Of a stretch of DNA of 64,000 bases, positions 735-55,891 are shown in pieces. How positions within the stretch are numbered: position 1 is the stretch's first letter; each line of letters begins with the position of its first letter. The notes under the pieces are model-generated. The model was given only the letters and a program-made list of their open reading frames with translations, ran no database searches and was not told the origin of the DNA. Made by a program: the position numbers and the translations under genes. Source of the stretch: Bacteroidales bacterium (lineage in GTDB: Bacteria; Bacteroidota; Bacteroidia; Bacteroidales; UBA3663); the NCBI GenBank assembly GCA_017519885.1, contig JAFWRO010000035.1, positions 31,427-95,426 on the forward strand, in the 5' to 3' direction.

Positions 735-1110
735 AGCACTCTGTCGGCCGTCACGATGCTTTATCCTGTAGCAGATAGCACGCTGACGGCCGTCATGATG
801 CTTGCTCCCGCAGGATAGAGCACGCTGACGCGCGACACGATGCTTTATCACGCAGCAGATAGCACTCTGACGGCTGTCGTGATGCTTCATCCGTCAGCGG
901 AAGTACTCTGTCGGCCGTCACGATGCTTCATCACGCAGCAGATAGCACTCTGTCGCCCGTCATGATGCTCCATCACGCAGCAGACAGCACTCTGTCGGCC
1001 GACACGATGCTTCGTCCGACTGCAGAAGCACTCTGACACCCGTCACGATGCTTCATCGCGGAGCAGATAGCACTCTGTCGGCCGTCATGGTGCTCTATCA
1101 CGCAGCAGAT
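735..1110. repeat. Tandem array 1: about 9 units of 41-42 bp, consensus AGCACTCTGTCGGCCGTCACGATGCTTCATCACGCAGCAGAT
   Basis: Direct reading. GGCC or degenerate cores start at 746, 788, 830, 872, 913, 955, 997, 1038 and 1080. The array lies between convergent gene ends. Confidence 0.9.
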
Positions 1111-1156
1111 ATTTTATTGTGGCTTTTGATGGACTTATCCTTGTGGTTTTATTGTC

Positions 1157-2153: not shown

Positions 2154-2668
2154 ATAAAAGCCTAAAGTGCTTGCTACCTATGGGCATATTGGGAGTTATC
2201 TTGCATACAACCATATATTTTACATTTTGTCAGAGCAACCGCACACAAGGTATAGGAATTGCCGTTATTTCTTTATTGTTGTTTACAACAACTTGCTTAT
2301 CTTATTTGATTAAGGCAAAAGATATCTTGTTGTTCGATAGCATTAAGACTCTTTATGTTATATTATTCAGTATGTTATCCTATACATTCTTATTTAATGC
2401 ATGGTGTATGATAATCTCCGAAGATAGTATATGGACAATTTCTCTATTACAAAGCATCCTATATCCCATCATATTGTCAGGGTTCATTGGGAAAGCTGCA
2501 AGTAAGAAGAGCTTCAAGGATTGTTCTGCCCTGATGTTTATTTTCGCAATCGCGAGTTGTAGCTTTAGATTTGATCCCAATAATCTAAATATACTTGCTA
2601 TTATCTCATATATTATTTGCATCGTCATCCCATCTATATTCGATTGGGGCCATAGTAAATATATTTGA
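2150..2668 (+). CDS. Polytopic membrane protein, 172 aa, no recognisable family
   Basis: There are five to six hydrophobic segments, the sequence is AT-rich, and it is first in an operon-like arrangement. Confidence 0.6.
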   Translation: MNKSLKCLLPMGILGVILHTTIYFTFCQSNRTQGIGIAVISLLLFTTTCLSYLIKAKDILLFDSIKTLYVILFSMLSYTFLFNAWCMIISEDSIWTISLLQSILYPIILSGFIGKAASKKSFKDCSALMFIFAIASCSFRFDPNNLNILAIISYIICIVIPSIFDWGHSKYI

Positions 2669-5028: not shown

Positions 5029-5163
5029 TGGTTTTCCTCTGTTTTTGACAACTTTTCTTCTATTTATCTGGATATTATTTTTATTTTCTGTATTCTAATG
5101 ACATTCTTAGATGGCATTCCGATGACAAGATTCTATTATCATTTTCGTGGCATAACCAATCTT

Positions 5164-5600
5164 GGCCAAAACTGGTTATTCTTCGACAGAAGTATGGCCT
5201 TTCTTGGCCAAGATTGGTTATTCTTCGTTCGCTGCATACCCTTTCTTGGCCAAGATTAGTTATGCTGCGGTTGGATAGAGCACTCTGTCGGCCGTCGGAG
5301 TGCTTGCTCCGATTGAGGCATGACCTTTTTCGGCCAAGATTGGTTATTCTCCGTTCGCTGCATACTCTTTTTCGGCCAAGATTGGTTATTCTCCGTTCGC
5401 TGCATACCCTTTCTTGGCCAAGATTGGTTATTCTTCGTTCGCAGCATACCCTTTTTCGGCCAAGATTGGTTATTCTTCGTTCGCAGCATACCCTTTCTTG
5501 GCCAGGATTGGTTATTCTTCGTTCGCAGCATACCCTTTCTTGGCCAGGATTGGTCATGCCGCGATCGAATAAAGCACTCTGTCGAACAACAGAGTGCTTT
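5164..5600. repeat. Tandem array 2: exact 42-bp period, unit GGCCAAGATTGGTTATTCTTCGTTCGCWGCATACCCTTTCTT, closed by a perfect hairpin
   Basis: GGCC starts at 5164, 5206, 5248, 5290, 5332, 5374, 5416, 5458, 5500 and 5542. The terminal hairpin AAAGCACTCTGT-CGAACA-ACAGAGTGCTTT is at 5571-5600. Confidence 0.9.
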
Positions 5601-10182: not shown

Positions 10183-11277
10183 TCACCCCACGATATACTT
10201 GCTGCCCGGAAGCAGCGAGATGAGCCAGGTTACCAGCGCACTGCATGCGTATGTGAGCATCGCGATGACCGGGATGGCAAGCCATACGGGAAGCGATGGA
10301 TTAGCCACGTCGCCAGCGATGATCCACTCCGAAATCGGGATGAGGAAGAAGATGTGCATCAGGTACATGCCGAAGGTCAGCTTGCTGATGCGCGTGATCC
10401 AGGCGGGAGCCTCCTGGATGCAGGAGAAGAGCAGGAACGCGCCGAACGTGGTGATGAGGACGTTGAGCGTACAGAACTCCCACGACCATTCCGCCATCGG
10501 GGTATCCAGCATCTGTCCGGGAACGCCTTTCCACCAGAAGCTCCATGCCGTGAACGCAGCACCGAAGAGGAAACACAGGCTACCCACCTTGATGCGCTTC
10601 GAGCGTGACCAGTCGAGGTGCACACGGATGTAATGCGCCAACACCAGGTAGCCCAGATAGCCCGAGCAGTACCACAGTGCGGAGAAGTTGTTCCAGAAGC
10701 ATTCGCCCCACAGTTCAGGCGACACGAAGCGATGGAGCCAGGGGATGAGCGTCGAGAAGGCAAAGATGCCGAGGAACGTCAGTTCGTCCTTCGCGCTGGC
10801 CTTTTCGAGCCAGGGCGACACCACGGGGATGATGAGGTAGATGCTGATGAGCGGATACATAAACCACAGATGGCCTGCGATGGGCGGGAAGTTGAAAGGC
10901 ACCATCTTCAGGTCGTGCAAGGCCTGTTCCTGCGTTGTGCCTCCCCAAGCCAAAGGCAGAACGGCATAGAGCAGCAGGAAGCACACAAAGGGTGGCAGGA
11001 TGCGCAGGAAGCGCCGGCGATAGAACTGCCCCATGGTCATACCTTCGCGCATCGGGACGAGCAGGAAGGCTGACACGATCATGAACAGCGGCACGGAGAT
11101 ACGCCCGAAGAAACCATCATAGATGGATACCCACAGGCGGTTGCTCTCGTTGGCCAGCATCGTATAGGCATCGTGGTCAACGTAGAAACATTCACTCGCG
11201 TGGACGACCATCACCAGAAGGCAGGCCACCACGCGAATGTAATCGACAAAGGCAATACGGGGAGAAGGAGTTTTCAA
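10183..11277 (-). CDS. Acyltransferase-3 family membrane O-acyltransferase
   Basis: It shows RIAFVDYIRVVACLLVMVVHASE and about 10 TM segments. The only possible start is a TTG that sits inside the heptamer repeat. Confidence 0.85.
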   Translation of the reverse strand: MKTPSPRIAFVDYIRVVACLLVMVVHASECFYVDHDAYTMLANESNRLWVSIYDGFFGRISVPLFMIVSAFLLVPMREGMTMGQFYRRRFLRILPPFVCFLLLYAVLPLAWGGTTQEQALHDLKMVPFNFPPIAGHLWFMYPLISIYLIIPVVSPWLEKASAKDELTFLGIFAFSTLIPWLHRFVSPELWGECFWNNFSALWYCSGYLGYLVLAHYIRVHLDWSRSKRIKVGSLCFLFGAAFTAWSFWWKGVPGQMLDTPMAEWSWEFCTLNVLITTFGAFLLFSCIQEAPAWITRISKLTFGMYLMHIFFLIPISEWIIAGDVANPSLPVWLAIPVIAMLTYACSALVTWLISLLPGSKYIVG

Positions 11278-11330
11278 TTAACAATTAACAATTAATAATT
11301 AACAATTATCAATTAACAATTAACAATTAA
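11275..11330. repeat. 8 x 7-bp tandem repeat CAATTAA (complement TTAATTG)
   Basis: caattaa caattaa caattaa taattaa caattat caattaa caattaa caattaa. It contains the upstream gene's TAA stop (11320-11322) and the downstream gene's TTG start (11275-11277). Confidence 0.9.
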
Positions 11331-12494: not shown

Positions 12495-12539
12495 AGTTAT
12501 CTGAGTTATCCGAGTACTCCGATTATTCCGAGTACTCCG
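12495..12539. repeat. 5 x 9-bp tandem repeat (AGTAYTCCG family)
   Basis: agttatctg agttatccg agtactccg attattccg agtactccg. The same family occurs at 46079-46130. Confidence 0.85.
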
Positions 12540-13515: not shown

Positions 13516-15759
13516 TTATAAATGTATCAAAGCGCTTGGAAGGCCGTCACACCTGGCACCCACGACGCAGGGACCTGTAAGGCTGCGAAGACGAATGGTG
13601 GCTCGACCATTGGCAGCCTGGATGCGACGGGAGCCTGTGGTGGTGCCCTGGTTGACGAGCAATTCGCCATCGCCGGCAATCGAGAACTCAATCCAATCGC
13701 TGCTGTCGAGACAGCGGATGCCATTGGCGTCGTAGAGCTGGGCCTCGATCAGGTCGGGGGCAATCCGCGTGAGTCGCAGTTCGGCAGGCTTTCCCCAATG
13801 TTCGGTCTGATATTCGAAGGTAATCTCGTCGGACAAATCCTTGGCGACGGCCTTGATGGTGTTGGTGCCTCGTTGCAGGACGACGTTCCAATGGAAGCCC
13901 TGGGCGGGATAGTCCTCCATGTTACGCTTTCGTTTGCCTACCGACTGGCCATTGACGAAGAGCTCTACCTCGGGCTGATTGGAATAGACGAGGACCTCAC
14001 GGGGTTCGCCTTCCTCGCCCCAACGCACAGGCCAGGAATGTCCGTAGATGTGAAGCATCGGCTGGCTTGCCCAATAACTTTGGAACACGTAATAACTCTC
14101 CTTGGGCGTGCCATCGCGCTGCATGATGCCCTTCTGGTTGACGTAAGGAATAGGATTCGAGGGACGCAGCGGGGTGCAGAAATCCTTGAAGGTCCAGAAT
14201 GCCGATCCCGTCAGGTTGGGCATCCTGGCCTGTTCCTTCAGATGCCAATCGAAGAGACGGACAATGTAGCTCTCCGACCAGTCGCCTTTCTTGTCACCGA
14301 CCTCGATGTCGAAGCCCGACTCGGCATGTCGGCCCGCATGACTGTCGCCTCCCCATTCGGCATGCAGGAAATGGGGGAAGCGTGCGATGGCAGCCTCCTC
14401 CATCTCGCGATAATCGGTGAAGCGTCGGCTGTACCAACCTGCCCAAATCGACGGCGAATAGATATCGACGATGTCGGCACAGAAGTCGCAGCGACGAATG
14501 ACCGTCTTTCGCAGGGGGTCGAGCCGATGGGCGTGATCGTTGAGCGACGTCATCAGAGAACGGATACCCAGCGTATCGATGATGGTAGAGAAATCGCCTG
14601 GCCAGTCATTTTCGTTGCCGAGGCCCCAAAGGATGATGCTCGGATGATGACGATGCTGAGTGATCATGTTTTCGAGCATTCGATGAGCCTGCTGCTGATA
14701 CTCTTCTCCCCCTACTCCACCACGGCACCAGGGAATCTCTTCCCACACGAGGATGCCGAGCGAGTCGCAGAGGTCGAGCACGAGGTCGCGCTGCTGGTAA
14801 TGGCCCAAACGGATGAAGTTGGCACCCATGTCCTTGATCTGCTTCATCTCCTGTCGGATCTGCTCATCGGTCATAGCGGCACCCACTCCGGCATGGTCCT
14901 CATGGCGATGTGTACCCTTCAAGAGCAGACGGCGACCATTGAGGAAGAAGGGCCCATGCTCGCGGAACACATAACTGCGGAAGCCAAAGCGACGCTCGAT
15001 GACCTGTTGGCCAAAAGTGATACGAAGCGTATAGAGCGATGGCGAATCCACATCCCACAACGTAGGTTTCCTGATGCGGATAGGCAGACCGATGCCCCCT
15101 TCATAGACCGTCTTTCCATCGGGAGACACGATGCTGCAACTGACGTCCCCGATATCAGATGGCGAAGTTTTCACACTTACCTTGTCGCCCTCCACATCGA
15201 TGCGGACATCGCTGATGTAGCGCTCGGGCAGATACACCAGATGAACGGGGCGATAGAGTCCTCCATAGAGGCAGAAGTCGCTCATGTCGGAAGGAATCAT
15301 CTCCACATCACGACTGTTGTCGCAACGCACGGCAATGGGATGCCGGCCATTGCCGACTTCGGTGATATCGACCGTCCAACGGTCGTAACCGCCGACGTGC
15401 GAACCCATCAGACGGCCATCGACATAGACCTGCGTCTTCTGGCCTGCACCTTCGAACTCCAGCAAGGTATGTCCCCCAGCATAGGGATTTGCCACCTCGA
15501 TGGTGGTGCGATACCAGGCAGCACCCTGATAGTAGTTCACGTCGGGATCGACACCATCTTCGGCATTATAGCAATGGGGAAGCGTGACGTCCTGCCACAA
15601 CGGGACGCTTTCGGGTTTCCCTTCCTTCACGGGACGCTCCACCTCCCAGACGTTTGCCATGTCGGTGCGAACGAATTGCCATTGGGACAAATTGACCTGT
15701 GCACCAGCTGTCACAGCCAGCACACAGGTCGAAAAACAAAGCACACACAATCGTTTCAA
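13516..15759 (-). CDS. Glycoside hydrolase family 2 (beta-galactosidase/glucuronidase-like)
   Basis: Motifs are NFIRLGHYQQ, WGLGNENDW (acid/base) and HAEWGGDSH (nucleophile region). It has a signal peptide and a TTG start at 15757-15759. Confidence 0.9.
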   Translation of the reverse strand: MKRLCVLCFSTCVLAVTAGAQVNLSQWQFVRTDMANVWEVERPVKEGKPESVPLWQDVTLPHCYNAEDGVDPDVNYYQGAAWYRTTIEVANPYAGGHTLLEFEGAGQKTQVYVDGRLMGSHVGGYDRWTVDITEVGNGRHPIAVRCDNSRDVEMIPSDMSDFCLYGGLYRPVHLVYLPERYISDVRIDVEGDKVSVKTSPSDIGDVSCSIVSPDGKTVYEGGIGLPIRIRKPTLWDVDSPSLYTLRITFGQQVIERRFGFRSYVFREHGPFFLNGRRLLLKGTHRHEDHAGVGAAMTDEQIRQEMKQIKDMGANFIRLGHYQQRDLVLDLCDSLGILVWEEIPWCRGGVGGEEYQQQAHRMLENMITQHRHHPSIILWGLGNENDWPGDFSTIIDTLGIRSLMTSLNDHAHRLDPLRKTVIRRCDFCADIVDIYSPSIWAGWYSRRFTDYREMEEAAIARFPHFLHAEWGGDSHAGRHAESGFDIEVGDKKGDWSESYIVRLFDWHLKEQARMPNLTGSAFWTFKDFCTPLRPSNPIPYVNQKGIMQRDGTPKESYYVFQSYWASQPMLHIYGHSWPVRWGEEGEPREVLVYSNQPEVELFVNGQSVGKRKRNMEDYPAQGFHWNVVLQRGTNTIKAVAKDLSDEITFEYQTEHWGKPAELRLTRIAPDLIEAQLYDANGIRCLDSSDWIEFSIAGDGELLVNQGTTTGSRRIQAANGRATIRLRSLTGPCVVGARCDGLPSALIHL

Positions 15760-15873
15760 GGTTAAGAGGGGTTTGAAGGGTTCGAGGGGTTCGAGGGGTT
15801 CGAGAGGTTTGAGAGGTTAAGAGGGGCTAACAACCTTTCGAACCTTTCTTAACCTTTCGAACTTTTCAGAACC
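15760..15873. repeat. Intercistronic G-arm/C-arm tandem-repeat hairpin (9-bp units GGGTTCGAG / CCTTTCGAA)
   Basis: About 7 G-rich 9-mers (15760-15826) are followed by a short loop and about 4 complementary C-rich 9-mers (15834-15873). It fills the gap from one gene's stop to the next gene's start. Confidence 0.85.
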
Positions 15874-15874
15874 A

Positions 15875-18214
15875 TCATTTATTCAGCTTGTCTCTTCTAT
15901 GCAGCGCCTCGAGGTAATAGTAGTCGGCATAGTTGATGGGGACGTCGATCTCGTCGCCAGCGGGGTAGTTGCCCGTGGCGTGCAACAGGAGGAAGCCCTG
16001 TGCGGTGCCCGGCTCGGGCTGATAGCTGGTCTCCAATGAATGGAGAACGCGGTCGGCATAGCTGCGATAAGCGGCTGCGGTGTCGGCATCGACATAGGTA
16101 GCCAGTTCGTAGAGCGCGGAGGCGATGATGGCTGCTGCCGAAGCATCGCGTGGACATCCACCGTCCTGGGCAGGACCCACGCCGGTCTTGATGGCAGGGT
16201 CGCGCATGTCCCAGTAGGGAACCAGGTCGTCGGGCATATCGGGTTGTGACATCCAGAATGCGGCAATCTTCTGCGCCTGCTCCAAGTAGGCCTTGTCATG
16301 GGTATAACGATAGCACATCGTGAAGCCATAGAGACCCCAGCCCTGACCACGACTCCATACCGACTCGTCGAAGAGACCCTGGTGGGTGATGCGCTTGATG
16401 ACGCTGCCATCCTCGGGATTATAATCCACCACATGATAGGAGGAATAGTCCTCGCGGAAATGATTGCGCATGGTAGTGTTGGCATGCGAAACGGCAATGT
16501 TGTAGTAGCGCTTGTCACCCGTGATGCGTGATGCCTCGAAAAGCAGTTCGAGGTTCATCATATTGTCGATGATGACAGCGAACTTCCATCGGTCGGGTGT
16601 GCCCCAACTCCAACTGCGGATGCAACCCACACGGTCGTCGTAACGAGTGATGAGCGTCTTGGCTGCCTTCACGACAACGTCGCGATAGGACTGCTCGCCT
16701 GTCAGTTCCCACGCCTTGCCGAAGGTGTTATAGACCATGAAGCCCAGGTCGTGGCTTCCTCCATGGTTCTTCACCGGTTCGATGGGCCAGGTGTTGCTGA
16801 CCGCCTGCTGACGCCAGAAGGGATCGTGCGAATACTGGTACATGTGCCACAGTTCGCCACCGAAGAATCCACAGCACCAGTCGGGCTGACGCACCATACG
16901 CAAATCGCCGTTCTTCTCCACGCAACGTGGCATCAACGACCAGTCCTTGCGGTCCTTGCGTATCTTGTTCGCCTGGCTGAGCTGATGGCGCAACTGCACG
17001 TCAGCACGAGCAAAGGCATTGTCGGTGAGGTCGGGCGTATAGTAGAGCAGGAAGAAACGATCGGCAAAACGACGGATAACGTTGTCCTTGGCCAACTGCA
17101 GGTAGTCGGTGCGCTCGGGTTCTAGCAGGTAGAGACGATAGAAGTCCTTGGCCAGTTCGTTCTGCTTGTAGTCCCACTCGCTGATCTGCTGGTAGGGCCA
17201 CTCCTCCACCTTTCTGCCCATATACGGGGCAAGGAAGTCGGCGGCTTTCTCGAGCAGGTCCATGCCCTCGGGCTGATAGCCTGCCTGTCGTGCCAGCTGG
17301 AAGACGTCGATGATGTGCGTCATATTGTACTGCGAGTAACCGAAGGCCAACGTACGGCGCAACTCGTTGGGCTGTTTGCCATCGGGCTCGATCTGCGTCA
17401 GCATGCGCTTCTCGTAGAACTGTGACAGATATTCCTCCATCACCTTCTTGTCGCCCACAAATTTGGCGTAGGCGATGACCTGCACATCGTGGGCAGTGGC
17501 GTGGTTGTTGCGCTGGTTTCCTTCCTCGATGCCCTGTTCGCTGGTCAGGATCCAATGGAGGAACTCGGCGAACCATTTCCGAAGCGCCTTGGCATCCTTG
17601 GCGGTAAAGGCCTTTGAACCTTCGAGCAGTTGCACGGCATCGAGCATCTCGACAAACGAGTAGGCATCGATAACCCCGTAGCAGCGTCCCCTGCCGTTGA
17701 ACTTGCCAGGCACAATCTGGGCATGGTTCAGATTCGGATTCATCCTTGTGTCCTTGTCCAGGAACCATACTCTCAGCAGTTCGGCAGCCTTCCGGGCATA
17801 ACGCTCGTCGCCGCTGAAATACCAAGCCAGCGAGAGGGTGGTGACCCCGTTGGCCATCAGCGCCAGTTTCGGACGGTCGAGGAGTTCCAGTTCGGGATTC
17901 GACACACCGTCGCGAGCGATGTAGGGCAGTCCGTCGGGCTTGGTCGGATCGGGCCAGTAGTAGCGGCTCAGACTCAGGTAGTCGTGCTTGTCGCCACTGG
18001 CCGGCACCTTCTCCTTCATCATCACCGAAAGCGGCTGGCGCTGCAATTCGCTCTCGGCCTCGTCGAGAAGATGACGATAGGCTGTGGCGTAGGCCGGCTG
18101 TTCCAGCGAGGCTTTCACCCGGGCGAGGTGAGCGCCGTCCCAGATGGACTGCGCCCCCGCCGTCGATACGGGCAAAAGAAGGAGGAATAGACCAACTAAC
18201 TTATGAATCCTCAT
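15875..18214 (-). CDS. Fusion protein: alginate-lyase-like (alpha/alpha toroid) N-domain + GH88 unsaturated glucuronyl hydrolase-like C-domain
   Basis: The N-half has ...LSRYYWPDPTKPDGLPYIARDGVSNPE.... The C-half has ...GSHDLGFMVYN..., VIIDNMMNLELLF and WSRGQGWGLYGF, typical of GH88/GH105. Confidence 0.75.
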   Translation of the reverse strand: MRIHKLVGLFLLLLPVSTAGAQSIWDGAHLARVKASLEQPAYATAYRHLLDEAESELQRQPLSVMMKEKVPASGDKHDYLSLSRYYWPDPTKPDGLPYIARDGVSNPELELLDRPKLALMANGVTTLSLAWYFSGDERYARKAAELLRVWFLDKDTRMNPNLNHAQIVPGKFNGRGRCYGVIDAYSFVEMLDAVQLLEGSKAFTAKDAKALRKWFAEFLHWILTSEQGIEEGNQRNNHATAHDVQVIAYAKFVGDKKVMEEYLSQFYEKRMLTQIEPDGKQPNELRRTLAFGYSQYNMTHIIDVFQLARQAGYQPEGMDLLEKAADFLAPYMGRKVEEWPYQQISEWDYKQNELAKDFYRLYLLEPERTDYLQLAKDNVIRRFADRFFLLYYTPDLTDNAFARADVQLRHQLSQANKIRKDRKDWSLMPRCVEKNGDLRMVRQPDWCCGFFGGELWHMYQYSHDPFWRQQAVSNTWPIEPVKNHGGSHDLGFMVYNTFGKAWELTGEQSYRDVVVKAAKTLITRYDDRVGCIRSWSWGTPDRWKFAVIIDNMMNLELLFEASRITGDKRYYNIAVSHANTTMRNHFREDYSSYHVVDYNPEDGSVIKRITHQGLFDESVWSRGQGWGLYGFTMCYRYTHDKAYLEQAQKIAAFWMSQPDMPDDLVPYWDMRDPAIKTGVGPAQDGGCPRDASAAAIIASALYELATYVDADTAAAYRSYADRVLHSLETSYQPEPGTAQGFLLLHATGNYPAGDEIDVPINYADYYYLEALHRRDKLNK

Positions 18215-18860: not shown

Positions 18861-18916
18861 GGAGTAAAAGGGGAGTAAAAAAGGAGTAAAAGGGGAGTAA
18901 AAGGGTAGTAAAAAGG
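18861..18916. repeat. 5 x 10-12-bp tandem repeat GGAGTAAAAG(G)
   Basis: ggagtaaaag gggagtaaaaaa ggagtaaaag gggagtaaaag ggtagtaaaaag, in the SusD-lipoprotein gap. Confidence 0.85.
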
Positions 18917-18958
18917 ACGATACCTTCTACTGTAGGAATTTGTTCTGTTCAAACCAAC

Positions 18959-18986
18959 AATTGTTAATTGTTAATTATTAATTGTT
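18959..18986. repeat. 4 x 7-bp tandem repeat AATTGTT
   Basis: aattgtt aattgtt aattatt aattgtt. This is the same heptamer family as 11275-11330, 27041-27097 and 58670-58697. Confidence 0.8.
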
Positions 18987-18997
18987 ATTTGAACAGA

Positions 18998-20674
18998 TTA
19001 GTTCCATCCCGGGTTCTGCACCACGCTGCCTTCAGATGTGGCAATCTCGTAGGTAGGAATGGGATAATAGTAGTCCTTGGCGGGATTGAAGGTGCGGTTG
19101 GCAGCGTCCTCAATCACGTAGATACCACCCTGATCGGCCACCTTGCGACCATTGAACATACCGTTCTCATCGGTCAGACGGCTCTCGATGTTCTCACGCT
19201 GGGTGCTCAGGTTGTCGGCATCGTTGTACTTCAGTCCGAGCATAGTCTGTGGCAGCACCTTTTCGGCAATCTTCCAACGGATGATGTCGTTGTAGCGCAG
19301 GTTCTCGTCGATGAACTCCACAAGGCGTTCGCGACGGATCTCCTGGAGCATATCCAGGCCGTTGGCAGCACAGAAGGCGTTGGTCAGCAAAGCCTCGAAG
19401 CCTGAACGATGGCGCACCTTGTTGACGGTGGCATTCAGCTGGGCATCGGTGATCTGGCCGTTGTACTCATAGAGCGCCTCGGCGTAGGAGATGAGGATTT
19501 CGGCATAGCGGATGATCATCTTGTCGACGGTCTCCTTGTTGGTGGTGTTCCACTCTTCGAGCATAAATCCCTTCTTCAGTCCGTAGCCATTGCCGTGCTG
19601 GTTGCCGAAGGGGTTGTAGCCGGCCTTGTAGGCTTCCTCGTCCTTCTGGTAGAAGGTCATTGCCATACGTGGGTCGCGGTTGATGAACACATCGTTGTGG
19701 TGGGTTTCCTCAACCTTCAACGTGGTCTTCTCACGGGGCAGACCGTCGGTATAGAGTATCTGGTCGATGGTCTGACGAGTTACGCTGACAGCGTTCTCCA
19801 TACCACGCGAGTTGTTGTGGGTGATGACAGCACCGTCACCGTTGGGGCCATAGATCTTCACGAAGACGTTCTCCTTGTTCTGACGACCTTCGCCATCGAA
19901 GTAGAAGAGTTTCTGGAAGTCGGGATAGAGGTCGTGCTTGCCGCTCTGGATGAGACGCTCGGCAGCATCGATGCTCACCTTGAGGTGCGACTTGTAGTCA
20001 CCGCCCAGATTGTGATACTTCGAGAAGGTACCCTCGTAAAGTCCGATGCGTACCATCAAGCCAAGGGCTGCGCTCTTCGAGACACGTCCCCAGTCGGCAG
20101 CACTGCTCACCTGGTCGATTTCGGGCAGATATTCCTCAGCGAACTTCAGGTCGGCATAGCACTGCTGGATCACCTGTTCGCGGGGCGTGCGTCCCATCTT
20201 GATGTCGGGATCGCTGGTAGAATCGAATGCCTTCAGTATCAGGGGCACATCGCCGTATTTCTTCACAAGGTCGAAGAAATGGAAGGCACGGAAGAAGTAG
20301 GCTTCGGCCAGCCAGCGGTTCTTCTGGGCATCGGTGAGCGGAGCATTGCCGCCCTTCTCGATGATGTTGTTGCACACGAAGATCTTCTGGTAGGCGTTGG
20401 TCCAATCGCCTGAAGTGGCAGGGATGCTCCAGCTGCCGCTTGAGGTAGCATTTGCTGCGGTTCCGATGATGTCGTCGGCACGGGTGTCGTGCGAGAAGCC
20501 CGGAAGGTCGACATACAACTTGTTGCAGGCACCACGCAGGTCGGTCTCACTCTGCCAGAAGGTGTTGTCGGCGAGTGTGGTCTCGGGCAGTCGGTCCAGT
20601 TCGCAACTGGTGAGCGACATCATACCGCATACGATGCCGGCTGCATATATTGATTTGAATATATATCGTTTCAT
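18998..20674 (-). CDS. SusD/RagB-family nutrient-binding outer-membrane lipoprotein
   Basis: It has a lipoprotein signal MKRYIFKSIYAAGIVCGMMSLTSCELD, is about 558 aa, follows the SusC gene, and has the TPR-like SusD pattern. I moved the start to the internal ATG. Confidence 0.9.
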   Translation of the reverse strand: MKRYIFKSIYAAGIVCGMMSLTSCELDRLPETTLADNTFWQSETDLRGACNKLYVDLPGFSHDTRADDIIGTAANATSSGSWSIPATSGDWTNAYQKIFVCNNIIEKGGNAPLTDAQKNRWLAEAYFFRAFHFFDLVKKYGDVPLILKAFDSTSDPDIKMGRTPREQVIQQCYADLKFAEEYLPEIDQVSSAADWGRVSKSAALGLMVRIGLYEGTFSKYHNLGGDYKSHLKVSIDAAERLIQSGKHDLYPDFQKLFYFDGEGRQNKENVFVKIYGPNGDGAVITHNNSRGMENAVSVTRQTIDQILYTDGLPREKTTLKVEETHHNDVFINRDPRMAMTFYQKDEEAYKAGYNPFGNQHGNGYGLKKGFMLEEWNTTNKETVDKMIIRYAEILISYAEALYEYNGQITDAQLNATVNKVRHRSGFEALLTNAFCAANGLDMLQEIRRERLVEFIDENLRYNDIIRWKIAEKVLPQTMLGLKYNDADNLSTQRENIESRLTDENGMFNGRKVADQGGIYVIEDAANRTFNPAKDYYYPIPTYEIATSEGSVVQNPGWN

Positions 20675-20724
20675 AATATTTTCTAAAAAAGCTTGATTAC
20701 AACTCAAAACTTATGGCTCATGGC

Positions 20725-23700
20725 TTATAAAGTTACGTTCACACCGAACGACCAGGTACGGAAGAAGGGATAGTAGTTACGGCCTACATTGTTGCCCGAC
20801 TCGGGGTCGAATACCTTCAGGATATCCGACTTTTCCCATACGTCGTTACCGCTGACATAGATACGCAGCTTGTCGATGTAGCGCTTGGGAACGGGGATGG
20901 TATAGCCGACCGTGATGTTCTTCAGACGGAGATAGGAGGCATCCTGTACCCACTTGTCGGAGGGCTGGAAGTTGAACATATCGCCATTATAGTTGTAGAG
21001 ACGTGGCCAGTAGGCATCGGTGTTTTCGGGAGTCCAGTAGTCGCGATGGATGGTCCAAGGCATCTGGTGAGTACGTCCGAAGGGTGAGATGGCCTCGGTG
21101 TCGATGAGCAGTTTGCGCTTTGCAACACCCTGGAACATCACTGCAACGTCGAAGCCCTTCCACTTGGCAGAAAGGTTGATGCCATAGAGATAGCGTCCGT
21201 TGGTGTCGCCCAGATAAACGAGGTCGCCGTGGTTCTCCTTCGTGCCGTCGCCGGCACCTACCTGGTGGTTGATGGAGCCGTCCTTGTCGGGCAGCGTCAG
21301 GAACTTGACGTCACCAGCGCCGATCTTGCCATCGGAGAACGACTTGTAGCCTGGATGATCCTGCTTATACTGCTCGTACTCTTCCTTGCTCGACCAGTAG
21401 CCGTCGGTGGTGTAACCCCAGATGGTGTTGAGGGGATAGCCCTCGATCAGCTGGCGGGTACCGGCAGTGATCACGTCGGCTCCGTCGTATTCGACGAGTT
21501 CGTTCTTCGAGTCGGAGAGGTTGAATGCCACCTGATAGCTGAAGTCGCCGATGCGGTCGTTCCACTTGATCTCGAACTCCCATCCCCAGGTCTTCAGTTT
21601 GCCGATGTTGACGGCAGGCACACCGATACCGATGGTGTGAGGCAGCTGCAGGTTGGAGAGCATGTCGTTGTTATATTTCCAATAGTAGTCGAACGTAGCG
21701 TTCAGACGGCTGTTGAACAGGCCGAGATCGACACCGAGGTTCGTGGTCTCGATGGTCTCCCACGTCTTGTCCTTCGAAGCGAGCTGGCTCTGATAGTAGC
21801 TCTTTTCGGTGATGTAGGTGGTCGATTGCGAGATGGTAGCGATGTAGTCATACAAGCCGAGCACCGCGCCGTTACCAAGCTGACCCCATGATGCACGCAG
21901 TTTCAGGTTGCTTACCCAATCGAGCTTGAACCAAGGCTCCTGGTTCACACGCCAGGCTGCCGATACCGATGGGAAAGCCTTCCAGCGCTTCTCGGGTGCC
22001 AGACGTGACGAACCGTCGTAACGGATGTTGGCCTCAAGGAGATAACGCTCGGCAAAGTTGTAGTTGATACGTCCGAAATACGACATCATTGACCAAGGCT
22101 GGATCAGGTCACCCAGCGTGGTGTTCGAAGCCTCGGAAGCATCGTAATAGTTGAACGAATAGAAATCGTTGGAGTTCATATTGCGTGCAGTAGCATCGAA
22201 CTGGTCCTTGCGATAGTTCTCATAGCTCGTACCGGCAAGCACCTGGAAATTATGCTGACCTGCCTCCAATGCATAGTTTACGGTAGCCTCGAACTGATCG
22301 TGGTAGTCGTTGTTCTTCTGACGATAGAGCGAGTTGGGGTTGTTGGTCTGCTGACGGATGGTGGTGCCGTTCATGGCGTACCATGCCAGCCAGTGACGCT
22401 CGGAACGCTGGGTATAGTAACCAGCACGGCGGCTTGCACTCAGGTTCACGGTGAGACCCTTCACCAGGTTCTTGATGGTCAGTTCACCCTTGCCCAGGAA
22501 GGCTTCGTAGAGCGACTCGTTGGTGCCACCATTCTTAAGGATGTCGATAGGATTGACCTGAAGGTCGCCACTGTAGGGCTGTGCATCGTAGTTGGGAGTC
22601 TCTTCGGGCTGCCACAGCAACTGACGCGCACGTGCGCCGTACATTGTATTCAAGACACTGCCTGCACCACTCGATGGGGCGTTGTTCTTCTTCGACTGAT
22701 ACTGCACGTTGATGCCCAGGCTGAGATATTTGTTCAACTCGGCATGCAGCTTGGCATGCAGGTTCACGCGGGTATTGTTGTTCTTGGCATATTTCAGCAT
22801 ACCGTCCTTGAAGTAGTAGTTGCCGCTGATGAGGTAGTTGATGTTCTTCGAACCACCGCTCACCGAAATGGAGTGATTGGTCTGTCCGGCCCAGTCCTTG
22901 GTGCCTTCGTCCACCCAGTTGGTTGCGGTGAACTGCTCCCAACGTCCGTTGTTGTTGTTGGGGTAATAGTTGAAGTTGGGGTTTGCCACCCAGGTGGTCT
23001 TCTCCTTGTTCCATTCATAGGCACCGCCTGCATTGTATCGGCCAATATTGATCCACTGCTGCTCCTCCCATGCGGGCAGACGTTCTGGCATGTTGCCTGG
23101 CATATTGACAGCATAGTAGCCATTGTAGGAAACCTTCGGCTTGCCCTCGCTACCACTCTTGGTGGTGACGAGCACAACGCCCGATGCGGCACGTGCACCG
23201 TAGATGGCGCAGGCCGAAGCGTCCTTCAGTACCGAGATGCTCTCGATGTCGTCGGCATTGAGCAGGCCAAGGTCACCTTCAATACCATCGATCAGCACCA
23301 GGGCCGAAGTGGCATTCACCGATGAGAAACCGCGGATACGCATACCGCTGGTCTCGCTGCCTGGCTCACCGCTCGAACGGAGCACAGCCACACCTGGCAT
23401 TTCGCCCTGCATGGCGCTGAGCACATCGCTCGAAGGCTTGGCTGCGAGTTTGTCACCATCGACAGCACTCACGGCACCCGACAGGTTGACTTTCTTCTGA
23501 ACGCCATAACCGATGACTACGACTTCGTTCAAGGTCTTGTCGTCTTCCTCGAGAAGAACAGTATTGCCGATTCGTGTGGCAAGGATCTCCTGAGTAGAAT
23601 AGCCGACGTAGGAGAAAGTGATGGTTGCGCCCGACTTGACATTATGGATCACGAAGTTTCCGTCAACGTCGGTAACCACACCGTTCGTGGTGCCCTTCTC

Positions 23701-23862
23701 AAGCACACTCACTCCTATCAAAGGTTCGCGCGTAGAGGCATCGAGCACCTTGCCTCGGAAGGTCTGGGAACTTTGGGCAAAAAGGCCCACGTCCAGGAGG
23801 AACATGATACAACCGATAAGCATCAGTCGCATGCATTCCAATGATAATGTTTTTTGTTTCAT
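20725..23862 (-). CDS. SusC/RagA-family TonB-dependent outer-membrane transporter
   Basis: It has an N-terminal carboxypeptidase-regulatory-like domain (FRGKVLDASTREPLIGVSVLEKGT), a plug, a 22-strand barrel, and a terminal ...SFGVNVTL. Confidence 0.95.
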   Translation of the reverse strand: MKQKTLSLECMRLMLIGCIMFLLDVGLFAQSSQTFRGKVLDASTREPLIGVSVLEKGTTNGVVTDVDGNFVIHNVKSGATITFSYVGYSTQEILATRIGNTVLLEEDDKTLNEVVVIGYGVQKKVNLSGAVSAVDGDKLAAKPSSDVLSAMQGEMPGVAVLRSSGEPGSETSGMRIRGFSSVNATSALVLIDGIEGDLGLLNADDIESISVLKDASACAIYGARAASGVVLVTTKSGSEGKPKVSYNGYYAVNMPGNMPERLPAWEEQQWINIGRYNAGGAYEWNKEKTTWVANPNFNYYPNNNNGRWEQFTATNWVDEGTKDWAGQTNHSISVSGGSKNINYLISGNYYFKDGMLKYAKNNNTRVNLHAKLHAELNKYLSLGINVQYQSKKNNAPSSGAGSVLNTMYGARARQLLWQPEETPNYDAQPYSGDLQVNPIDILKNGGTNESLYEAFLGKGELTIKNLVKGLTVNLSASRRAGYYTQRSERHWLAWYAMNGTTIRQQTNNPNSLYRQKNNDYHDQFEATVNYALEAGQHNFQVLAGTSYENYRKDQFDATARNMNSNDFYSFNYYDASEASNTTLGDLIQPWSMMSYFGRINYNFAERYLLEANIRYDGSSRLAPEKRWKAFPSVSAAWRVNQEPWFKLDWVSNLKLRASWGQLGNGAVLGLYDYIATISQSTTYITEKSYYQSQLASKDKTWETIETTNLGVDLGLFNSRLNATFDYYWKYNNDMLSNLQLPHTIGIGVPAVNIGKLKTWGWEFEIKWNDRIGDFSYQVAFNLSDSKNELVEYDGADVITAGTRQLIEGYPLNTIWGYTTDGYWSSKEEYEQYKQDHPGYKSFSDGKIGAGDVKFLTLPDKDGSINHQVGAGDGTKENHGDLVYLGDTNGRYLYGINLSAKWKGFDVAVMFQGVAKRKLLIDTEAISPFGRTHQMPWTIHRDYWTPENTDAYWPRLYNYNGDMFNFQPSDKWVQDASYLRLKNITVGYTIPVPKRYIDKLRIYVSGNDVWEKSDILKVFDPESGNNVGRNYYPFFRTWSFGVNVTL

Positions 23863-24081: not shown

Positions 24082-24089
24082 TATCTTTG
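24082..24089 (+). promoter_or_regulatory. -7 box TATCTTTG for the sensor-regulator gene
   Basis: gtaTATCTTTGcaccgc. The ORF-track start (TTG at 24087) lies inside this box and is therefore rejected. Confidence 0.55.
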
Positions 24090-24131
24090 CACCGCAAAAC
24101 TTATCGTGTTTTATTAATTGTATTTTTTCAA

Positions 24132-27035
24132 TTGAAAAGGATCTTACTTCTAACGTACCTCCTGGCTCTGGCTTCGATGTCAGGCAGGGCTGAAAATCAC
24201 TGGCAACGCGTGGTGGTGAACTACACCCGTCAGCAATACCATTCAGGCAATCAGAACTGGCAGGCCTCCCAAAGCAAGGAGGGCTGGATGTACTTTGCCA
24301 ACAACAAGGGGCTGCTGGAATACGACGGCAACACCTGGCAGACCTATTCCCTGCCCGGCAATGTGAAGGTGAGAGCCGTCAGGACCAGCGGCGACACCAT
24401 CTATGTAGGTGCATTGGGGCAATTCGGGCTTTTTACGCGAAATCCGAAAGGCCAGCTCATCTACCGGCGACTGTCAGAAAGCGTCGATCGGGCAGGGCAG
24501 CTGAACATCTGGAACATCCACCAGATCGGGCACGACATCTACTACCAGAGCGACAATGCCCTCTACATCAACAATAGCGAAACGAAAATCGACAGCCCGC
24601 TTGGCATCAGTTACTCCACGGTGGTCTATAACCGACTCTATGCAGTCGGTTCGCAGGGAGTCTTTGTGCTAGTGGGCAATGCGTTCCAGCAACTGCAGGG
24701 TATCGACATCAGCCAAACCTCTCGCATCGTCAGCATCCTCCCCTATCCACAGGGGAAGCTGCTGCTCGTGAGCAGCGACCAGGGCCTCTTCCTCTATTCC
24801 GACAATCATATCGAACCGCTCCACACGGCTGCCGACGAACTGATTGCCCATCGCGGGCTGTCTTCGGCGGCTTGTTCTGGCGACATTCTTGCCCTGGGCA
24901 CGATGCAGGACGGCGTGATACTGCTCGACCTCAAACAGAACACGATCGAAAGGATGTCAATCAACCAGGGACTGCAGAACAAAACGGTGCTTTCGACCTT
25001 TTTCGACCGCGACCAGAACCTCTGGCTCGGGCTTGACAATGGCATCGACTGCATCCCCATGCGCTCACCCCTGCGTTTCATCAACAGCCGGCAGTCGCCC
25101 ATCGGAAGCGGCAATTGCAGCGTCGAATACCAGGGGCGCCTCTATCTCGGAACCAACCAGGGACTCTACGAGATGGCGGGTGGCGACATCCGCTTTGTGG
25201 AGGGAACCGACGGACAGGTGCTTTGCCTAGACACCATCGGAGGGCGCCTTTTCTGCGGCGGACGACAGTTCTTCCTCTCCATCGACGGCAATCGAATCAC
25301 ACGCTACAGGAACCGTGGTGTGTGGGGAGTACGACGCATCGGCAATCGCGACGATGTGCTGCTCACAGCCTCCTATTGGGGCCTGCGGCTGATGCGCCTC
25401 CAAGGACGCGACTGGGTGATGGCCGAAGATGTGAAGGGTGCCGACATCTCAGCCAAGACGTTCTACATCGAGGACGGACTGCCCGTCGTTTGGGTGGCCA
25501 ACAAGGAGAAGGGCATCTTCCGACTTACGCTCACCGACGACCTGACGGAAGTCAAGAGCCGGAAATGCTACAATTCCGAACTGCTGCCGAAGGGTGACAA
25601 CGTCTGCATCACACGCTTCGACGGAGAGACCGTCGTAGCCTCGCGCCAGGGATTGCTGCGCTACGATGCAGCGCACGACAGTCTGGTGCTTTTCACCGAA
25701 CTCGAAGACCGGCTGGAGGGGCACGTGCCTTACACCTACCTGCTGCAAAATGCCAGTGGAGACATCTGGTATGCTGCCGATGGCACGCTTCATCTGGTAA
25801 GGGGATCGCGCAATGATGGTTATCTGAACGACTGGCTGATGGAGGACTTCGAGAATGTCAGCCTCAACGGCGACCAGGCCATCATCGGCACCGAAGAGGG
25901 TTTCGCCATGCTGAGCCTTTCAGAACCCTCCTCCCCCTCTGATGAAGGATTTGAAGGAGGCTCTACCAATCCCCTCAAACCTCTAGAACCCCTCACCCCC
26001 TACATTCGCCGAGTCTATATCGGCAATGGTGCCGACACGCTCTATTACGGCTGCCAACCGCCTAGTGACATCCGTTGGCGCGACAACTCACTGCGCATTG
26101 AGTACAGCGTCAGCAATTATGACCCTGCCCAGTCGGTGCTCTACAGTTATTGGCTCGAAAAGCAGCGGAACGGCTTACTCTATGCTGGCAGGAGGTCAGC
26201 CGAAAGCGAATGGAGCCCTTATTCAAGGCGAAGCATCAAGGAATACACCAACCTCACTGAAGGCACTTACACGTTCCATCTGCGTGTCATATCAAACTAT
26301 AGCGAGAATCCCGTTCAAACCACGTTCCATTTCACGATTCTGCCACCCTGGTATCGCTCATGGTGGGCTTATCTGCTCTACACATTGCTGCTGGCTGCCC
26401 TCGGCTTCGAAGCATATCGGCGTCAGAAGCGGAAGCGCCAAAAGCTGATTGCCCAGAAGGACGAGCAGATTCACGAACGCGAGGAACAGATTCACGAGCA
26501 GGAAGAGCAGATCCTCGAACAGGAGGAGAAGATTGCCATTCTGCGAGAAGAGAAACTGGAAATCGAACTGCGCTCGAAGCAGGACGAACTGGTGCGTTCG
26601 AGGATGAACATCGTGCGCAAGAACGAGATGCTGCAGGAGATCAAGAAGACGGCGGTCAGCCTGAACAAGTCGCTCAGCGAAGAAAACCTGCCCGCTTCCA
26701 AACGTCGCATCATCCGTCTGATCGGGCAGATCGACACCAACATCAGCCATGATGATGACCTCGATGCCTTCCACGACTCGTTCGATGCCGTGCATCACAA
26801 GTTTCTGCAGACACTGAGCAAACGCTATCCTGACCTTTCGCACAAGGAAATGATGCTGTGTGCCTATATCCGCATGGGACTGCAGTCGAAAGAGATTGCC
26901 CCTCTCCAGAACATTTCGACGCGAGGCATCGAAATCAGCCGCTATCGAATCCGTCAGAAACTTGGGCTCGACAAGAGTGCTAGCCTCACTGAATTTCTGA
27001 TGCACCTCGATGTGCCCGACACAGACCAGCAATGA
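24132..27035 (+). CDS. Kinase-less sensor regulator: beta-propeller repeats + Y_Y_Y domain + TM + coiled coil + LuxR/GerE HTH
   Basis: The propeller-type repeats resemble hybrid two-component sensors. It has a TM segment WWAYLLYTLLLAALGF and a C-terminal HKEMMLCAYIRMGLQSKEIAPLQNISTRGIEISRYRIRQKLG. The start is uncertain (TTG 24132 or ATG 24177). Confidence 0.85.
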   Translation: MKRILLLTYLLALASMSGRAENHWQRVVVNYTRQQYHSGNQNWQASQSKEGWMYFANNKGLLEYDGNTWQTYSLPGNVKVRAVRTSGDTIYVGALGQFGLFTRNPKGQLIYRRLSESVDRAGQLNIWNIHQIGHDIYYQSDNALYINNSETKIDSPLGISYSTVVYNRLYAVGSQGVFVLVGNAFQQLQGIDISQTSRIVSILPYPQGKLLLVSSDQGLFLYSDNHIEPLHTAADELIAHRGLSSAACSGDILALGTMQDGVILLDLKQNTIERMSINQGLQNKTVLSTFFDRDQNLWLGLDNGIDCIPMRSPLRFINSRQSPIGSGNCSVEYQGRLYLGTNQGLYEMAGGDIRFVEGTDGQVLCLDTIGGRLFCGGRQFFLSIDGNRITRYRNRGVWGVRRIGNRDDVLLTASYWGLRLMRLQGRDWVMAEDVKGADISAKTFYIEDGLPVVWVANKEKGIFRLTLTDDLTEVKSRKCYNSELLPKGDNVCITRFDGETVVASRQGLLRYDAAHDSLVLFTELEDRLEGHVPYTYLLQNASGDIWYAADGTLHLVRGSRNDGYLNDWLMEDFENVSLNGDQAIIGTEEGFAMLSLSEPSSPSDEGFEGGSTNPLKPLEPLTPYIRRVYIGNGADTLYYGCQPPSDIRWRDNSLRIEYSVSNYDPAQSVLYSYWLEKQRNGLLYAGRRSAESEWSPYSRRSIKEYTNLTEGTYTFHLRVISNYSENPVQTTFHFTILPPWYRSWWAYLLYTLLLAALGFEAYRRQKRKRQKLIAQKDEQIHEREEQIHEQEEQILEQEEKIAILREEKLEIELRSKQDELVRSRMNIVRKNEMLQEIKKTAVSLNKSLSEENLPASKRRIIRLIGQIDTNISHDDDLDAFHDSFDAVHHKFLQTLSKRYPDLSHKEMMLCAYIRMGLQSKEIAPLQNISTRGIEISRYRIRQKLGLDKSASLTEFLMHLDVPDTDQQ

Positions 27036-55856: not shown

Positions 55857-55891
55857 TGGGGTTAAGAGGGGTTAAGAAAAGTTCGAAGGGT
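55857..55891. repeat. About 10-bp tandem repeat GGGGTTAAGA / GGGTTCAAAG (same family as 15760-15826)
   Basis: ggggttaaga ggggttaaga aaagttcgaa gggtt.... The stretch ggttaagaggggtt is identical to 15760-15773. Confidence 0.8.

Follow-up and report, generated by a model that had tools for sequence, protein, structure and literature searches.

Borg extrachromosomal elements carry tandem repeats which create amino-acid tandem repeats, and their repeat regions were described as independently arisen (PMC9879509). Rickettsia palindromic elements (RPEs) are about 100-150 bp long, palindromic, and encode a conserved peptide per family, according to the account of Ogata et al. (2000, 2002) given in PMC10969869. 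As portrayed in PMC4679880, the TAACTGA heptamer arrays of Beggiatoaceae, Cyanobacteria and some Bacteroidetes are short intergenic repeats located by start codons; their phylogenetic distribution is patchy and their mechanism of spreading is given as unknown. The literature on Prevotella or PULs yielded no specific description of the 9-bp repeat family reported here.

This family was analyzed in a window, i.e. a contiguous stretch of 64,000 nucleotides from a Bacteroidales bacterium. Its members in the window and the gene carrying one of them are located as follows.

15760 to 15873, no strand assigned: intercistronic hairpin of the same unit family (sequence, TRF and inverted-repeat search)
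55858 to 55900, minus strand: one-armed intergenic array, reading GGGGTTAAGAGGGGTTAAGAAAAGTTCGAAGGGTTCAAAGGG on the plus strand, with the minus strand as its C-rich strand
24087 to 27035, plus strand: sensor-regulator gene (Pfam, AF2 model and Foldseek)
25920 to 26000, plus strand: lineage-specific linker insert SEPSSPSDEGFEGGSTNPLKPLEPLTP, amino acids 612-638 of the regulator (orthologue alignment and AF2 model)
25920 to 25967, plus strand: 5' part of the insert, confined to the closest relatives of the window, L001-L004 (Smith-Waterman and blastn-short)
25971 to 25997, plus strand: three head-to-tail 9-bp units, CCCCTCAAA, CCTCTAGAA and CCCCTCACC, encoding P-L-K, P-L-E and P-L-T (pattern scan)

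As in Borgs, short tandem repeats occur here both between genes and in frame in ORFs, and they evolve fast, with copy numbers varying among close relatives; Borg repeats likewise add disordered segments, often in extracellular or membrane proteins (PMC9879509). Unlike the Borg repeats, a single 9-bp family occupies many loci, is read in three frames and forms intergenic hairpins with complementary arms; its host is a bacterial chromosome, whereas Borgs are archaeal extrachromosomal elements. Common to the regulator tract and to RPEs and MITEs, in the way PMC10969869 presents them, is an otherwise intergenic family inside ORFs, with the frame intact, at surface or linker positions that tolerate it. 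The TAACTGA arrays resemble the family in having a short head-to-tail unit that recurs at many loci, upstream of start codons and within a few nucleotides of them; following PMC4679880, they are overwhelmingly intergenic and their 7-nt unit is not divisible by three, whereas the unit here comprises 9 bp and is also translated.

The regulator gene is divergent from a PUL containing SusC, SusD, alginate-lyase/GH88 and GH2 genes. Its ORF is open over 982 codons; translation probably starts at codon 16 (24132), and a related protein from the same cluster (P0121), which bears on the choice of the start codon, begins with MKRILLL. The protein comprises a signal anchor, two beta-propellers, a Y_Y_Y Ig-like domain, a TM helix, a coiled coil and a LuxR/GerE HTH, in this order. 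Pfam located Y_Y_Y at amino acids 677-752 and GerE at 917-967; Y_Y_Y scored above its cut-off and Reg_prop slightly under it. Foldseek matched the AF2 model (mean pLDDT 80) to the periplasmic domains of BT4673 (3OTT), BT4663 (4A2L/4A2M) and BT3049 (3V9F) with E-values of about 1e-32 and target-normalised TM-scores of up to 0.69. Both Foldseek and Pfam thus gave an HTCS-type periplasmic fold (propeller-propeller-Y_Y_Y), and the regulator shares with these sensors the two beta-propellers, Y_Y_Y, the TM helix and a neighboring PUL. In contrast to Bacteroides hybrid two-component sensors, its cytoplasmic part consists of a coiled coil and a LuxR/GerE HTH, and a 27-aa insert is present at the propeller-to-Y_Y_Y junction. 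Pfam detected no histidine kinase, receiver or AraC domain in the C-terminal part, only GerE/LuxR. The regulator is of the one-component transmembrane type and not a full HTCS; it belongs to the PUL-associated, sugar-sensing transmembrane regulators of LuxR type. A second in-frame tandem repeat, unrelated to the 9-bp family, is found in the same gene and is kept in the cluster members examined.

26458 to 26534, plus strand: EEQIHEQ-type heptad repeat with a period of 21 nt, directly after the TM helix (TRF and translation)

The insert consists of 81 nt (27 codons) between ...EEGFAMLSL and YIRRVYIGNG, and the domains on either side are intact. A first-pass annotation had described this segment and its translation, both of which are real; its coordinates were off by one, the segment spanning 25920-26000 and a 21-mer within it 25974-25994 instead of 25975-25995. 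The roughly 27 amino acids, which that annotation proposed to check for being an indel, are one in the orthologue alignment, in which the basal linker has about 10 amino acids. The proposed location was likewise confirmed, as the insert connects the second of the two propellers to Y_Y_Y. In the AF2 model, residues 611-637 form a coil between strand 605-610, the last of the propeller, and strand 638-645, the first Ig-like one; with pLDDT values <50 at 615-629, the insert is predicted to be disordered. In the reading preferred below, the product is a disordered spacer, rich in Pro, whose length varies. A PDB sequence search with the linker region returned the Y_Y_Y domain of 4A2L as the sole match, with no residue-level alignment of the junction.

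Significant similarity to the repeat family was confined to 25968-26000, i.e. 33 of the 81 nt in the 3' third. Its local alignment score of 41 against the intergenic family was reached by none of 300 shuffles. The sense strand of the array is the C-rich strand, and the unit consensus in the regulator is CCN-YTC-RAA, encoding Pro-Leu-Glu/Lys, with a TTCGAA/CTCRAA core. As claimed earlier, the 21-mer agrees with the reverse complement of 15793-15813 at 20 of 21 positions; none of 100 dinucleotide shuffles matched at ≤3 mismatches. The close relatives L001, L002 and L004 have CTC where the window has CTA; hence, the ancestral match is 21/21. Codons of the arrays are homogeneous (Leu CTC 14/15, Lys AAA 5/5, Glu GAA 9/9), compared with 32% CTC, 32% AAA and 60% GAA in the regulator gene itself. 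Judged by unit sequence and head-to-tail 9-bp period, 25968-26000 is assigned to the intergenic family (GGTTYGARG / CCYYTCRAA). The idea that a repeat family of the intergenic hairpins also lies in frame inside the regulator was therefore borne out for this tract; as to common descent versus convergent growth, three units are of limited informative value, the set of units being low in diversity. With a unit of 9 bp, the arrays leave the reading frame open.

Different results were obtained for the 5' part. Smith-Waterman alignment of 25921-25967 with five intergenic arrays was not significant, its score being reached by 27 of 300 shuffles (29 of 300 for an upstream control segment), and blastn-short, run on about 2 Mb of downloaded sequence, gave nothing over shuffle level; this part was therefore rejected as a member of the family. 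It is absent in L005, L006, L013, L008 and L061. The string tttcagaacc, shared with intergenic 15864-15873, is indeed present at 25918-25927, but ggatttgaagg, formerly likened to a G-arm unit, is a window-specific state, relatives having TTA or GTA at that codon. Compared with shuffles, the insert showed no excess folding stability (z = -0.35 on the plus and -0.87 on the minus strand) and thus not the complementary-arm hairpin of the intergenic family. The C-arm/G-arm/C-arm, RPE-like make-up assigned to the insert is not supported, since its 5' part is without significant family similarity and the insert folds no better than shuffles. Among versions of the 5' part, only that of L002 formed a modest hairpin (z = -3.5); lineage-specific pieces beside the array did so in L005 (z = -3.3) and L061 (z = -4.7; all relative to mononucleotide shuffles). 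Because these hairpins accompany the array in three sublineages, a hairpin-type contribution to the linker is possible. An inverted repeat in the linker of L062 (P0018) was rejected (z = -1.0).

Between genes, the 15760-15873 hairpin fills the spacer of two minus-strand genes, from the stop of alginate-lyase/GH88 to the start of GH2 (gene identities from Pfam). Its arms are G-rich (GGTTYGARG)n at 15760-15826 and T-rich, complementary (AACCTTTCG)n at 15832-15873; folding of 15755-15880 gave z = -7.3 for the plus and -5.2 for the minus strand, the antisense version being the more stable one. Neither an intrinsic terminator nor a promoter was found at 15600-16000, which argues against a simple terminator, and Rfam searches of the whole window at the gathering threshold gave 0 hits. 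The 55858-55900 array lies directly upstream of an ATG at 55851, so that start codons adjoin both arrays of the window. Further one-armed intergenic members were found in L117, L173 and L078. At a syntenic intergenic site, hairpins of differing unit families replace each other among relatives whose regulators are 96-98% identical, and the loop of the hairpin in L002/L119 contains a small nested hairpin flanked by two copies of TAACAACCTTTC.

Among orthologues of the regulator, units are limited to one monophyletic group (the window, L001-L006, L008, L013 and L061) with 83-98% identity; outgroup regulators at ≤72% identity have unrelated linkers, and linker length varies also in many lineages without 9-bp units. 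The number of units ranges from about 1 to 6 and changes in 9-bp steps: 5-6 in L013, 4 in L005, 3-4 in L006, 3 in the window, 1 in L003 and P0130, where 18 nt were lost, and 4 in P0132. Within the cluster of ≥90% identity 1, 3 and 4 units were present, and 3, 4 and 5 in the neighboring cluster. The head-to-tail arrangement is clearest in L013, L005 and L006, which have tandem C-strand units only and no complementary arm. L061 reads the array DNA in another frame as PSSLSKP; the shifted frame gives EPFSPFEPL. No terminal repeats, defined ends or target-site duplications were visible in the orthologue alignment, which included no closely related empty site. Multiple-of-three units, copy differences of whole units and location in a disordered linker segment are the features of a coding minisatellite (aaTR, VNTR-like).

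As the annotation had anticipated, units lie in frame in other genes too, on related rumen-type contigs. Arrays were found in GH78, GH2 and DUF6261 proteins, one of them forming an insertion of roughly 33 amino acids relative to PDB 6I60; copy numbers of these arrays differ among orthologues sharing 87-93% identity with the query, and the DNA unit is read in its NPS/NLS and TSQ frames. The contigs are linked to the lineage of the window by L119, 96% identical to window positions 14397-17269, and by a 42-nt repeat family of the window common to L090, L133 and L084. A metagenome scan with a degenerate pattern yielded at least 120 loci; 39 of the 120 listed came from samples with rumen-type prefixes, and the matches included many unrelated environments. 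One 9-bp unit family is thus dispersed over many loci and genomes. The EPSP synthase of L176 was discarded as an example, its array replacing about 22 aligned residues without a clean insertion; the contig has a GC content of 0.64, which makes its relatedness doubtful.

A palindromic intergenic element (C-arm, G-arm, C-arm), transposed in frame into the regulator and since decayed, would resemble RPEs or MITEs, and palindromic elements inserted in frame are known from Rickettsia in the account of PMC10969869. The spread of the family across many loci and genomes, the hairpins replacing one another beside 96-98% identical regulators, the nested hairpin between the repeated flanks in L002/L119 and the modest folding of linker pieces in L002, L005 and L061 all point in this direction. 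We nevertheless regard such an origin as unlikely. The window insert does not fold above shuffles, its 5' "arms" have no significant family similarity, the "G-arm" match depends on a window-specific TTA-to-TTT change, the complementary arm is absent from L013, L006 and L005, and lengths change by whole 9-bp units. The analogy to RPEs drawn in the first-pass annotation applies to the position in frame within an intact ORF; otherwise it fails, the tract being a one-armed tandem array of 27-54 nt without a palindrome, in a frame that differs between genes. Family sequence makes up 33 nt of the 81-nt insert, and in place of one conserved peptide the unit encodes PLE/PLK, NPS/NLS, TSQ or, in L061, PSSLSK. 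What is evident is a unit family dispersed over many loci; as for the proposed mobility, neither ends nor terminal repeats nor a target duplication were seen for the coding tract in the orthologue alignment, and its peptide is not conserved.

Selection for a P-x-x spacer could also have produced a P-L-E repeat that looks like intergenic DNA by chance, through the codons it happens to use. Domains are commonly joined by Pro-rich spacers, length-variable linkers without units exist in many lineages, and few unit variants exist, so that a three-unit match is only moderately informative. This explanation appears very improbable in view of a match of 20-21 of 21 nt found in no shuffle, a codon choice strongly unlike that of the gene, units retained by L061 in another frame, and a DNA unit which elsewhere encodes NPS, NLS and TSQ repeats and fills untranslated spacers. 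Alternatively, the array might be retained for the fast length changes it allows in the linker, by which the geometry or sensitivity of the sensor would be altered, like a contingency locus whose frame is never broken. The polymorphism of 1, 3 and 4 units even at ≥90% identity and the position at the hinge of ligand-binding propellers and membrane-proximal domain in an HTCS-type sensor would fit; the peptide, however, is not conserved, L061 has a frame-shifted version, and similar arrays occupy loops of unrelated enzymes, for which tolerance is a better explanation than a role specific to the regulator. Adaptive tuning of this kind is thus also held to be highly unlikely.

Probably, the tract is a coding minisatellite derived from a lineage-wide 9-bp repeat family and tolerated in the linker of the regulator. 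The family would be widespread in one clade of Prevotellaceae, uncultured bacteria of the rumen. Its intergenic copies would fill intercistronic spacers, often with two complementary arrays that pair into a hairpin, and its copies inside genes would be single arrays whose C-rich strand is the sense strand. The ancestor of the orthologue group with 83-98% identity may have acquired the array in a propeller/Y_Y_Y linker that was already variable. Whole units would have been gained and lost afterwards, presumably by replication slippage or unequal recombination; slippage fits the length changes in 9-bp steps. Other short lineage-specific pieces, including the 5' part of the window insert, may have joined the array later. 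A disordered spacer can be tolerated because two independently folded domains flank it, and the tract would be a near-neutral passenger, at most tuning linker length. The frame shift in L061, the NPS/NLS and TSQ frames of other genes and the homogeneous array codons suggest that the DNA unit is conserved and not the peptide. Microhomology-guided copying of existing arrays, and not transposition, may give rise to new ones.

If this coding minisatellite reading is true, one short family shapes the untranslated spacers of PUL operons as well as linkers and loops in the proteins encoded there, in an abundant uncultured rumen lineage, and would be the counterpart, on a bacterial chromosome, of Borg tandem repeats and RPEs. 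The arrays would mark insertion-tolerant sites in Bacteroidales sensors and CAZymes, of use in protein engineering, and strain typing from metagenomes could use the tracts as fast-evolving length markers. As to the regulator, it would mean a propeller-to-Y_Y_Y junction without the need for a fixed length. It is conceivable, albeit doubtful, that the TTCGAA-core family is actively being spread to further sites across the genomes of this clade, as intercistronic hairpins and as disordered inserts, in any of the three frames, in dozens of proteins, among them regulators, GH78 and GH2. Such propagation would imply a sequence-specific repeat-seeding mechanism, e.g. microhomology-driven template switching or templated addition, by which new linkers and loops would be generated throughout the chromosome.

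The regulator gene of this uncultured rumen Prevotellaceae or Bacteroidales bacterium encodes a protein 98% identical to a protein of the MAG RUG11585 and 97% identical to one of RUG465. It is divergent from a minus-strand polysaccharide-utilisation locus (PUL):

24087..27035, + strand, transmembrane one-component regulator (Pfam, AlphaFold model, Foldseek)
20725..23862, − strand, SusC-like PUL gene
18998..20707, − strand, SusD-like PUL gene
15875..18214, − strand, alginate-lyase/GH88 PUL gene
13516..15759, − strand, GH2 PUL gene

Pfam analysis identified Y_Y_Y (aa 677-752) and GerE/LuxR (aa 917-967) domains and a Reg_prop match slightly under the cut-off. An AlphaFold model (46 homologues as input, mean pLDDT 80) predicted two β-propellers, an Ig-like domain, a long TM/coiled-coil helix and an HTH, in this order; Foldseek matched it to the periplasmic domains of Bacteroides BT4673, BT4663 and BT3049 (E about 1e-32). 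The listed ORF begins at TTG (window 24087-24132 region), and starts annotated among cluster members give 982, 967 or 952 aa; of these, the signal-anchor start seems to be that of the 967-aa form (MKRILLL..., window codon 16). The regulator gene has a further in-frame tandem repeat (window 26458-26534, period 21 nt), which encodes EEQIHEQ-like heptads of the cytoplasmic coiled coil; it was of equal length in 16 cluster members examined, and the search pattern had no match in the remaining members. Opposite the GH2 gene lies an open frame of the same length (13522-15765, + strand, 747 aa), which had no Pfam match and is probably a shadow ORF.

The first-pass annotation had given the 27-codon linker segment of the regulator the C-arm/G-arm/C-arm make-up of the intercistronic hairpin family. 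Sequence and translation were as reported; coordinates were off by one, the 81-nt span being 25920-26000 and its 21-mer 25974-25994. This 21-mer is identical to the reverse complement of 15793-15813 at 20 of 21 positions, and 0/100 dinucleotide shuffles of the window gave any 21-mer match at up to three mismatches. Since the closest relatives have CTC at the mismatching codon, the ancestral match was 21/21. Insert parts were locally aligned with five intergenic arrays using 300 shuffles. Segment 25968-26000 scored 41 (reached by 0/300 shuffles); segment 25921-25967 scored 19, which was reached by 27/300 shuffles, an outcome like that of an upstream control segment. Additionally, matches of this 5′ part within about 2 Mb of retrieved sequence did not exceed those of shuffles. 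Hence, the family match extends to the final 33 nt only. The supposed G-arm likeness of ggatttgaagg hangs on a TTT codon, which is TTA or GTA in the related contigs L001-L004. The insert showed no excess folding stability over shuffles, with z = −0.35 and −0.87 against −7.3 (+ strand) and −5.2 (− strand) for intergenic element 15755-15880. The insert lacks palindromy, and the suggested three-arm make-up finds no support. The model has coil at residues 611-637 (pLDDT <50 at 615-629), between the last propeller strand (605-610, FAMLSL) and the first Ig-like strand (638-645, PYIRRVYI), which argues for a disordered interdomain linker, as had been suspected.

The family part of the insert consists of head-to-tail 9-bp units (CCN-YTC-RAA):

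25971-25979, + strand, unit 1, CCCCTCAAA
25980-25988, + strand, unit 2, CCTCTAGAA
25989-25997, + strand, unit 3, CCCCTCACC

This structure was far plainer in orthologues than in the window's regulator (WIN). The array of contig L013 reads CCC TTT GAA / CCT CTC AAA / CCC CTC GAA / CCA TTC GAA / CCT ATC GAA / CCC CTC ACC (translation NPFEPLKPLEPFEPIEPLTP); there are four units in L005, three to four in L006 and one each in L003 and L008. In a neighbour-joining tree of regulators, with the linker taken out beforehand, all unit-bearing regulators formed a single clade, ((WIN, L001-L004), L008), (L061, (L006, (L013, L005))); the outgroups L007, L017, L009 and L010 (≤72% identity) had unrelated linkers of 10-31 aa. 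The tandem arrays of close relatives differ in length by whole units: members of the ≥90% identity cluster of WIN have one (protein P0130), three (most) or four units (P0132, NPLKPFEPFEPLTP), and a neighbouring cluster comprises alleles with 3, 4 and 5. The short L003 allele is a two-unit loss (18 nt) nested within the 3-unit group.

The unit is independent of reading frame, and three results show that it is the DNA unit, not the encoded peptide, that is conserved. The linker DNA of the 83% orthologue L061 (AACCTTTCAGCCCCTTCGAGCCTCTCCAAACCT...) keeps the units in a different frame (PSSLSKP); translation in the shifted frame yields EPFSPFEPL, so compensating ±1 indels are implied. Array codons are uniform when set against the gene's own usage (Leu CTC 14/15 vs 32%, Lys AAA 5/5 vs 32%, Glu GAA 9/9 vs 60%). 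Furthermore, the 9-bp unit occurs in spacers that are not translated, and other genes read it in other frames.

Public metagenome contigs, scanned for three units in a row, yielded at least 120 loci. Among the matches listed, eight sample/assembly prefixes account for 39 loci and include contigs closely related to the window. Window 14397-17269 has a 96% identical counterpart in L119, and a 42-nt repeat family of the window also occurs in L090, L133 and L084. This 42-nt family is separate and lineage-specific, with three arrays in the window (735-1111, 5160-5554, 51635-51949; 7-9 copies, about 80% matches, internally palindromic); array 51586-51991 matches L090, and 5152-5567 matches L133 and L084. 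The free unit position was C or T in 187/195 units of the 39-locus subset vs 243/326 elsewhere, and about half of the subset's arrays lay within long ORFs, both among the matches listed. The sense strand of these ORFs is mostly the C-rich one, with frames NPS/NLS, PLK and TSQ. Pfam domains flank the array on both sides in GH78 rhamnosidases (L136, L096, L133), GH2 (L114, L129) and DUF6261 (L081), confirming these ORFs as real genes. Compared with the solved GH78 structure 6I60, L136 has an insertion of roughly 33 aa that includes the array; at two array sites, unit number differs between homologues sharing 87-93% identity with the L136 query, and homologues ≤70% identical have short unrelated loops at both. 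In this GH78 clade (L136 299-3853, homologues P0150-P0156), NPSN/NLSN arrays occupy two separate sites, and the proteins are ~200 aa longer than distant orthologues because of many lineage-specific loop insertions. Variable loops and linkers of the lineage gain arrays of one 9-bp family, and the regulator is therefore one instance of a wider pattern.

Intergenic copies in the window sequence were:

15760-15873, between PUL genes, intercistronic hairpin of the family
55858-55900, one-armed family array adjoining an ATG

The + strand, antisense to the genes on either side, forms a far more stable hairpin at 15755-15880 (−57.8 kcal/mol) than the − strand does (−36.6 kcal/mol), because mismatches are G·U on one strand and A·C on the other; a terminator-like tail is absent from both strands. 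Each relative has a hairpin made of repeats at the position syntenic to 15760, with differing units:

L002, GGTTAAGAGG
L006, GGGGTTTGA
L001, L003 and L008, GGGATATTAAG
L013, GGAGTRDTC

The sites compared with window 15740-15900 were L001 1690-1890, L002 1620-1830, L003 1690-1900 and L008 1575-1845; adjacent coding DNA is 89-96% identical, lowest in L002 and L008. Hairpin unit types group WIN with L002, and L001 with L003 and L008. This is discordant with the regulator tree and suggests that the whole spacer was replaced or recombined. Syntenic to window 15760-15873, in L002 (about 1700-1760) and L119, the loop of the big hairpin contains a small hairpin CGCTCCGAGCTCTGCTCGCGTGGAGCG flanked by two TAACAACCTTTC copies, which resemble a target-site duplication.

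In the minus-strand PUL operon, most of the longer spacers between cistrons (11275-11330, 12495-12539, 15753-15873, 18861-18991) consist of short tandem repeats from several unit families: CAATTAA x8; AGTTATCCG/TCCGAGTAC; GGTTYGARG; GGAGTAAAAGG then AATTGTT. A module with a conserved non-repeat core GGACGATACCTTCGCC between a (GGAGTAAAAGG)n-type and a (CAATTGTTAATT)n array was located at:

18905-18990, window
about 1680-1775, L008
around 2457-2503, minus strand, L085

Its recurrence at different loci of different genomes and its nesting inside another hairpin in L008 make it look like a dispersed element.

The regulator array may grow and shrink by replication slippage or unequal recombination, and would be tolerated because the two flanking domains fold independently of each other. 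L008 and L003 have ATC/CTC GAA/GAG CCC TAY at the site; such TCGAACCC-like microhomology beside the conserved Pro-Tyr may have permitted duplication in place or a template switch to a pre-existing array. Next to the array, lineage-specific pieces that differ in three sublineages fold modestly better than mononucleotide shuffles (z = −3.5 for L002, −3.3 for L005, −4.7 for L061); inverted-duplication events may have had a minor role. The linker of the 61% orthologue P0018 (L062 1079-3934) contains an imperfect inverted repeat, CCACCCCCTCTCCCTCCCAGTGGGAGAAGGCCGAGGTGGGG (HPLSLPVGEGRGG), which lacks significance in comparison with shuffles (z = −1.0).

The suggested analogy with Rickettsia palindromic elements holds only for an in-frame, tolerated sequence; the tract does not share their size, palindromy or conserved peptide (PMC10969869). 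Nearest in behaviour are Borg tandem repeats, which are intergenic as well as in-frame, evolve fast and give disordered regions; unlike in Borgs, one unit family recurs here at many loci (PMC9879509). The intergenic copies resemble TAACTGA heptamer arrays, short units adjoining start codons in Beggiatoaceae, Cyanobacteria and some Bacteroidetes (PMC4679880). No published description of this 9-bp family was found, which speaks only weakly for its novelty, as literature coverage was incomplete. The tract exists and is not a product of chance, yet it is narrower than first described and of another kind: a minisatellite, in frame within a sensor linker predicted to be disordered, whose 9-bp units belong to a lineage-wide repeat family. 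Of greater interest is whatever process carries a single unit family to this many sites, intergenic and coding alike.
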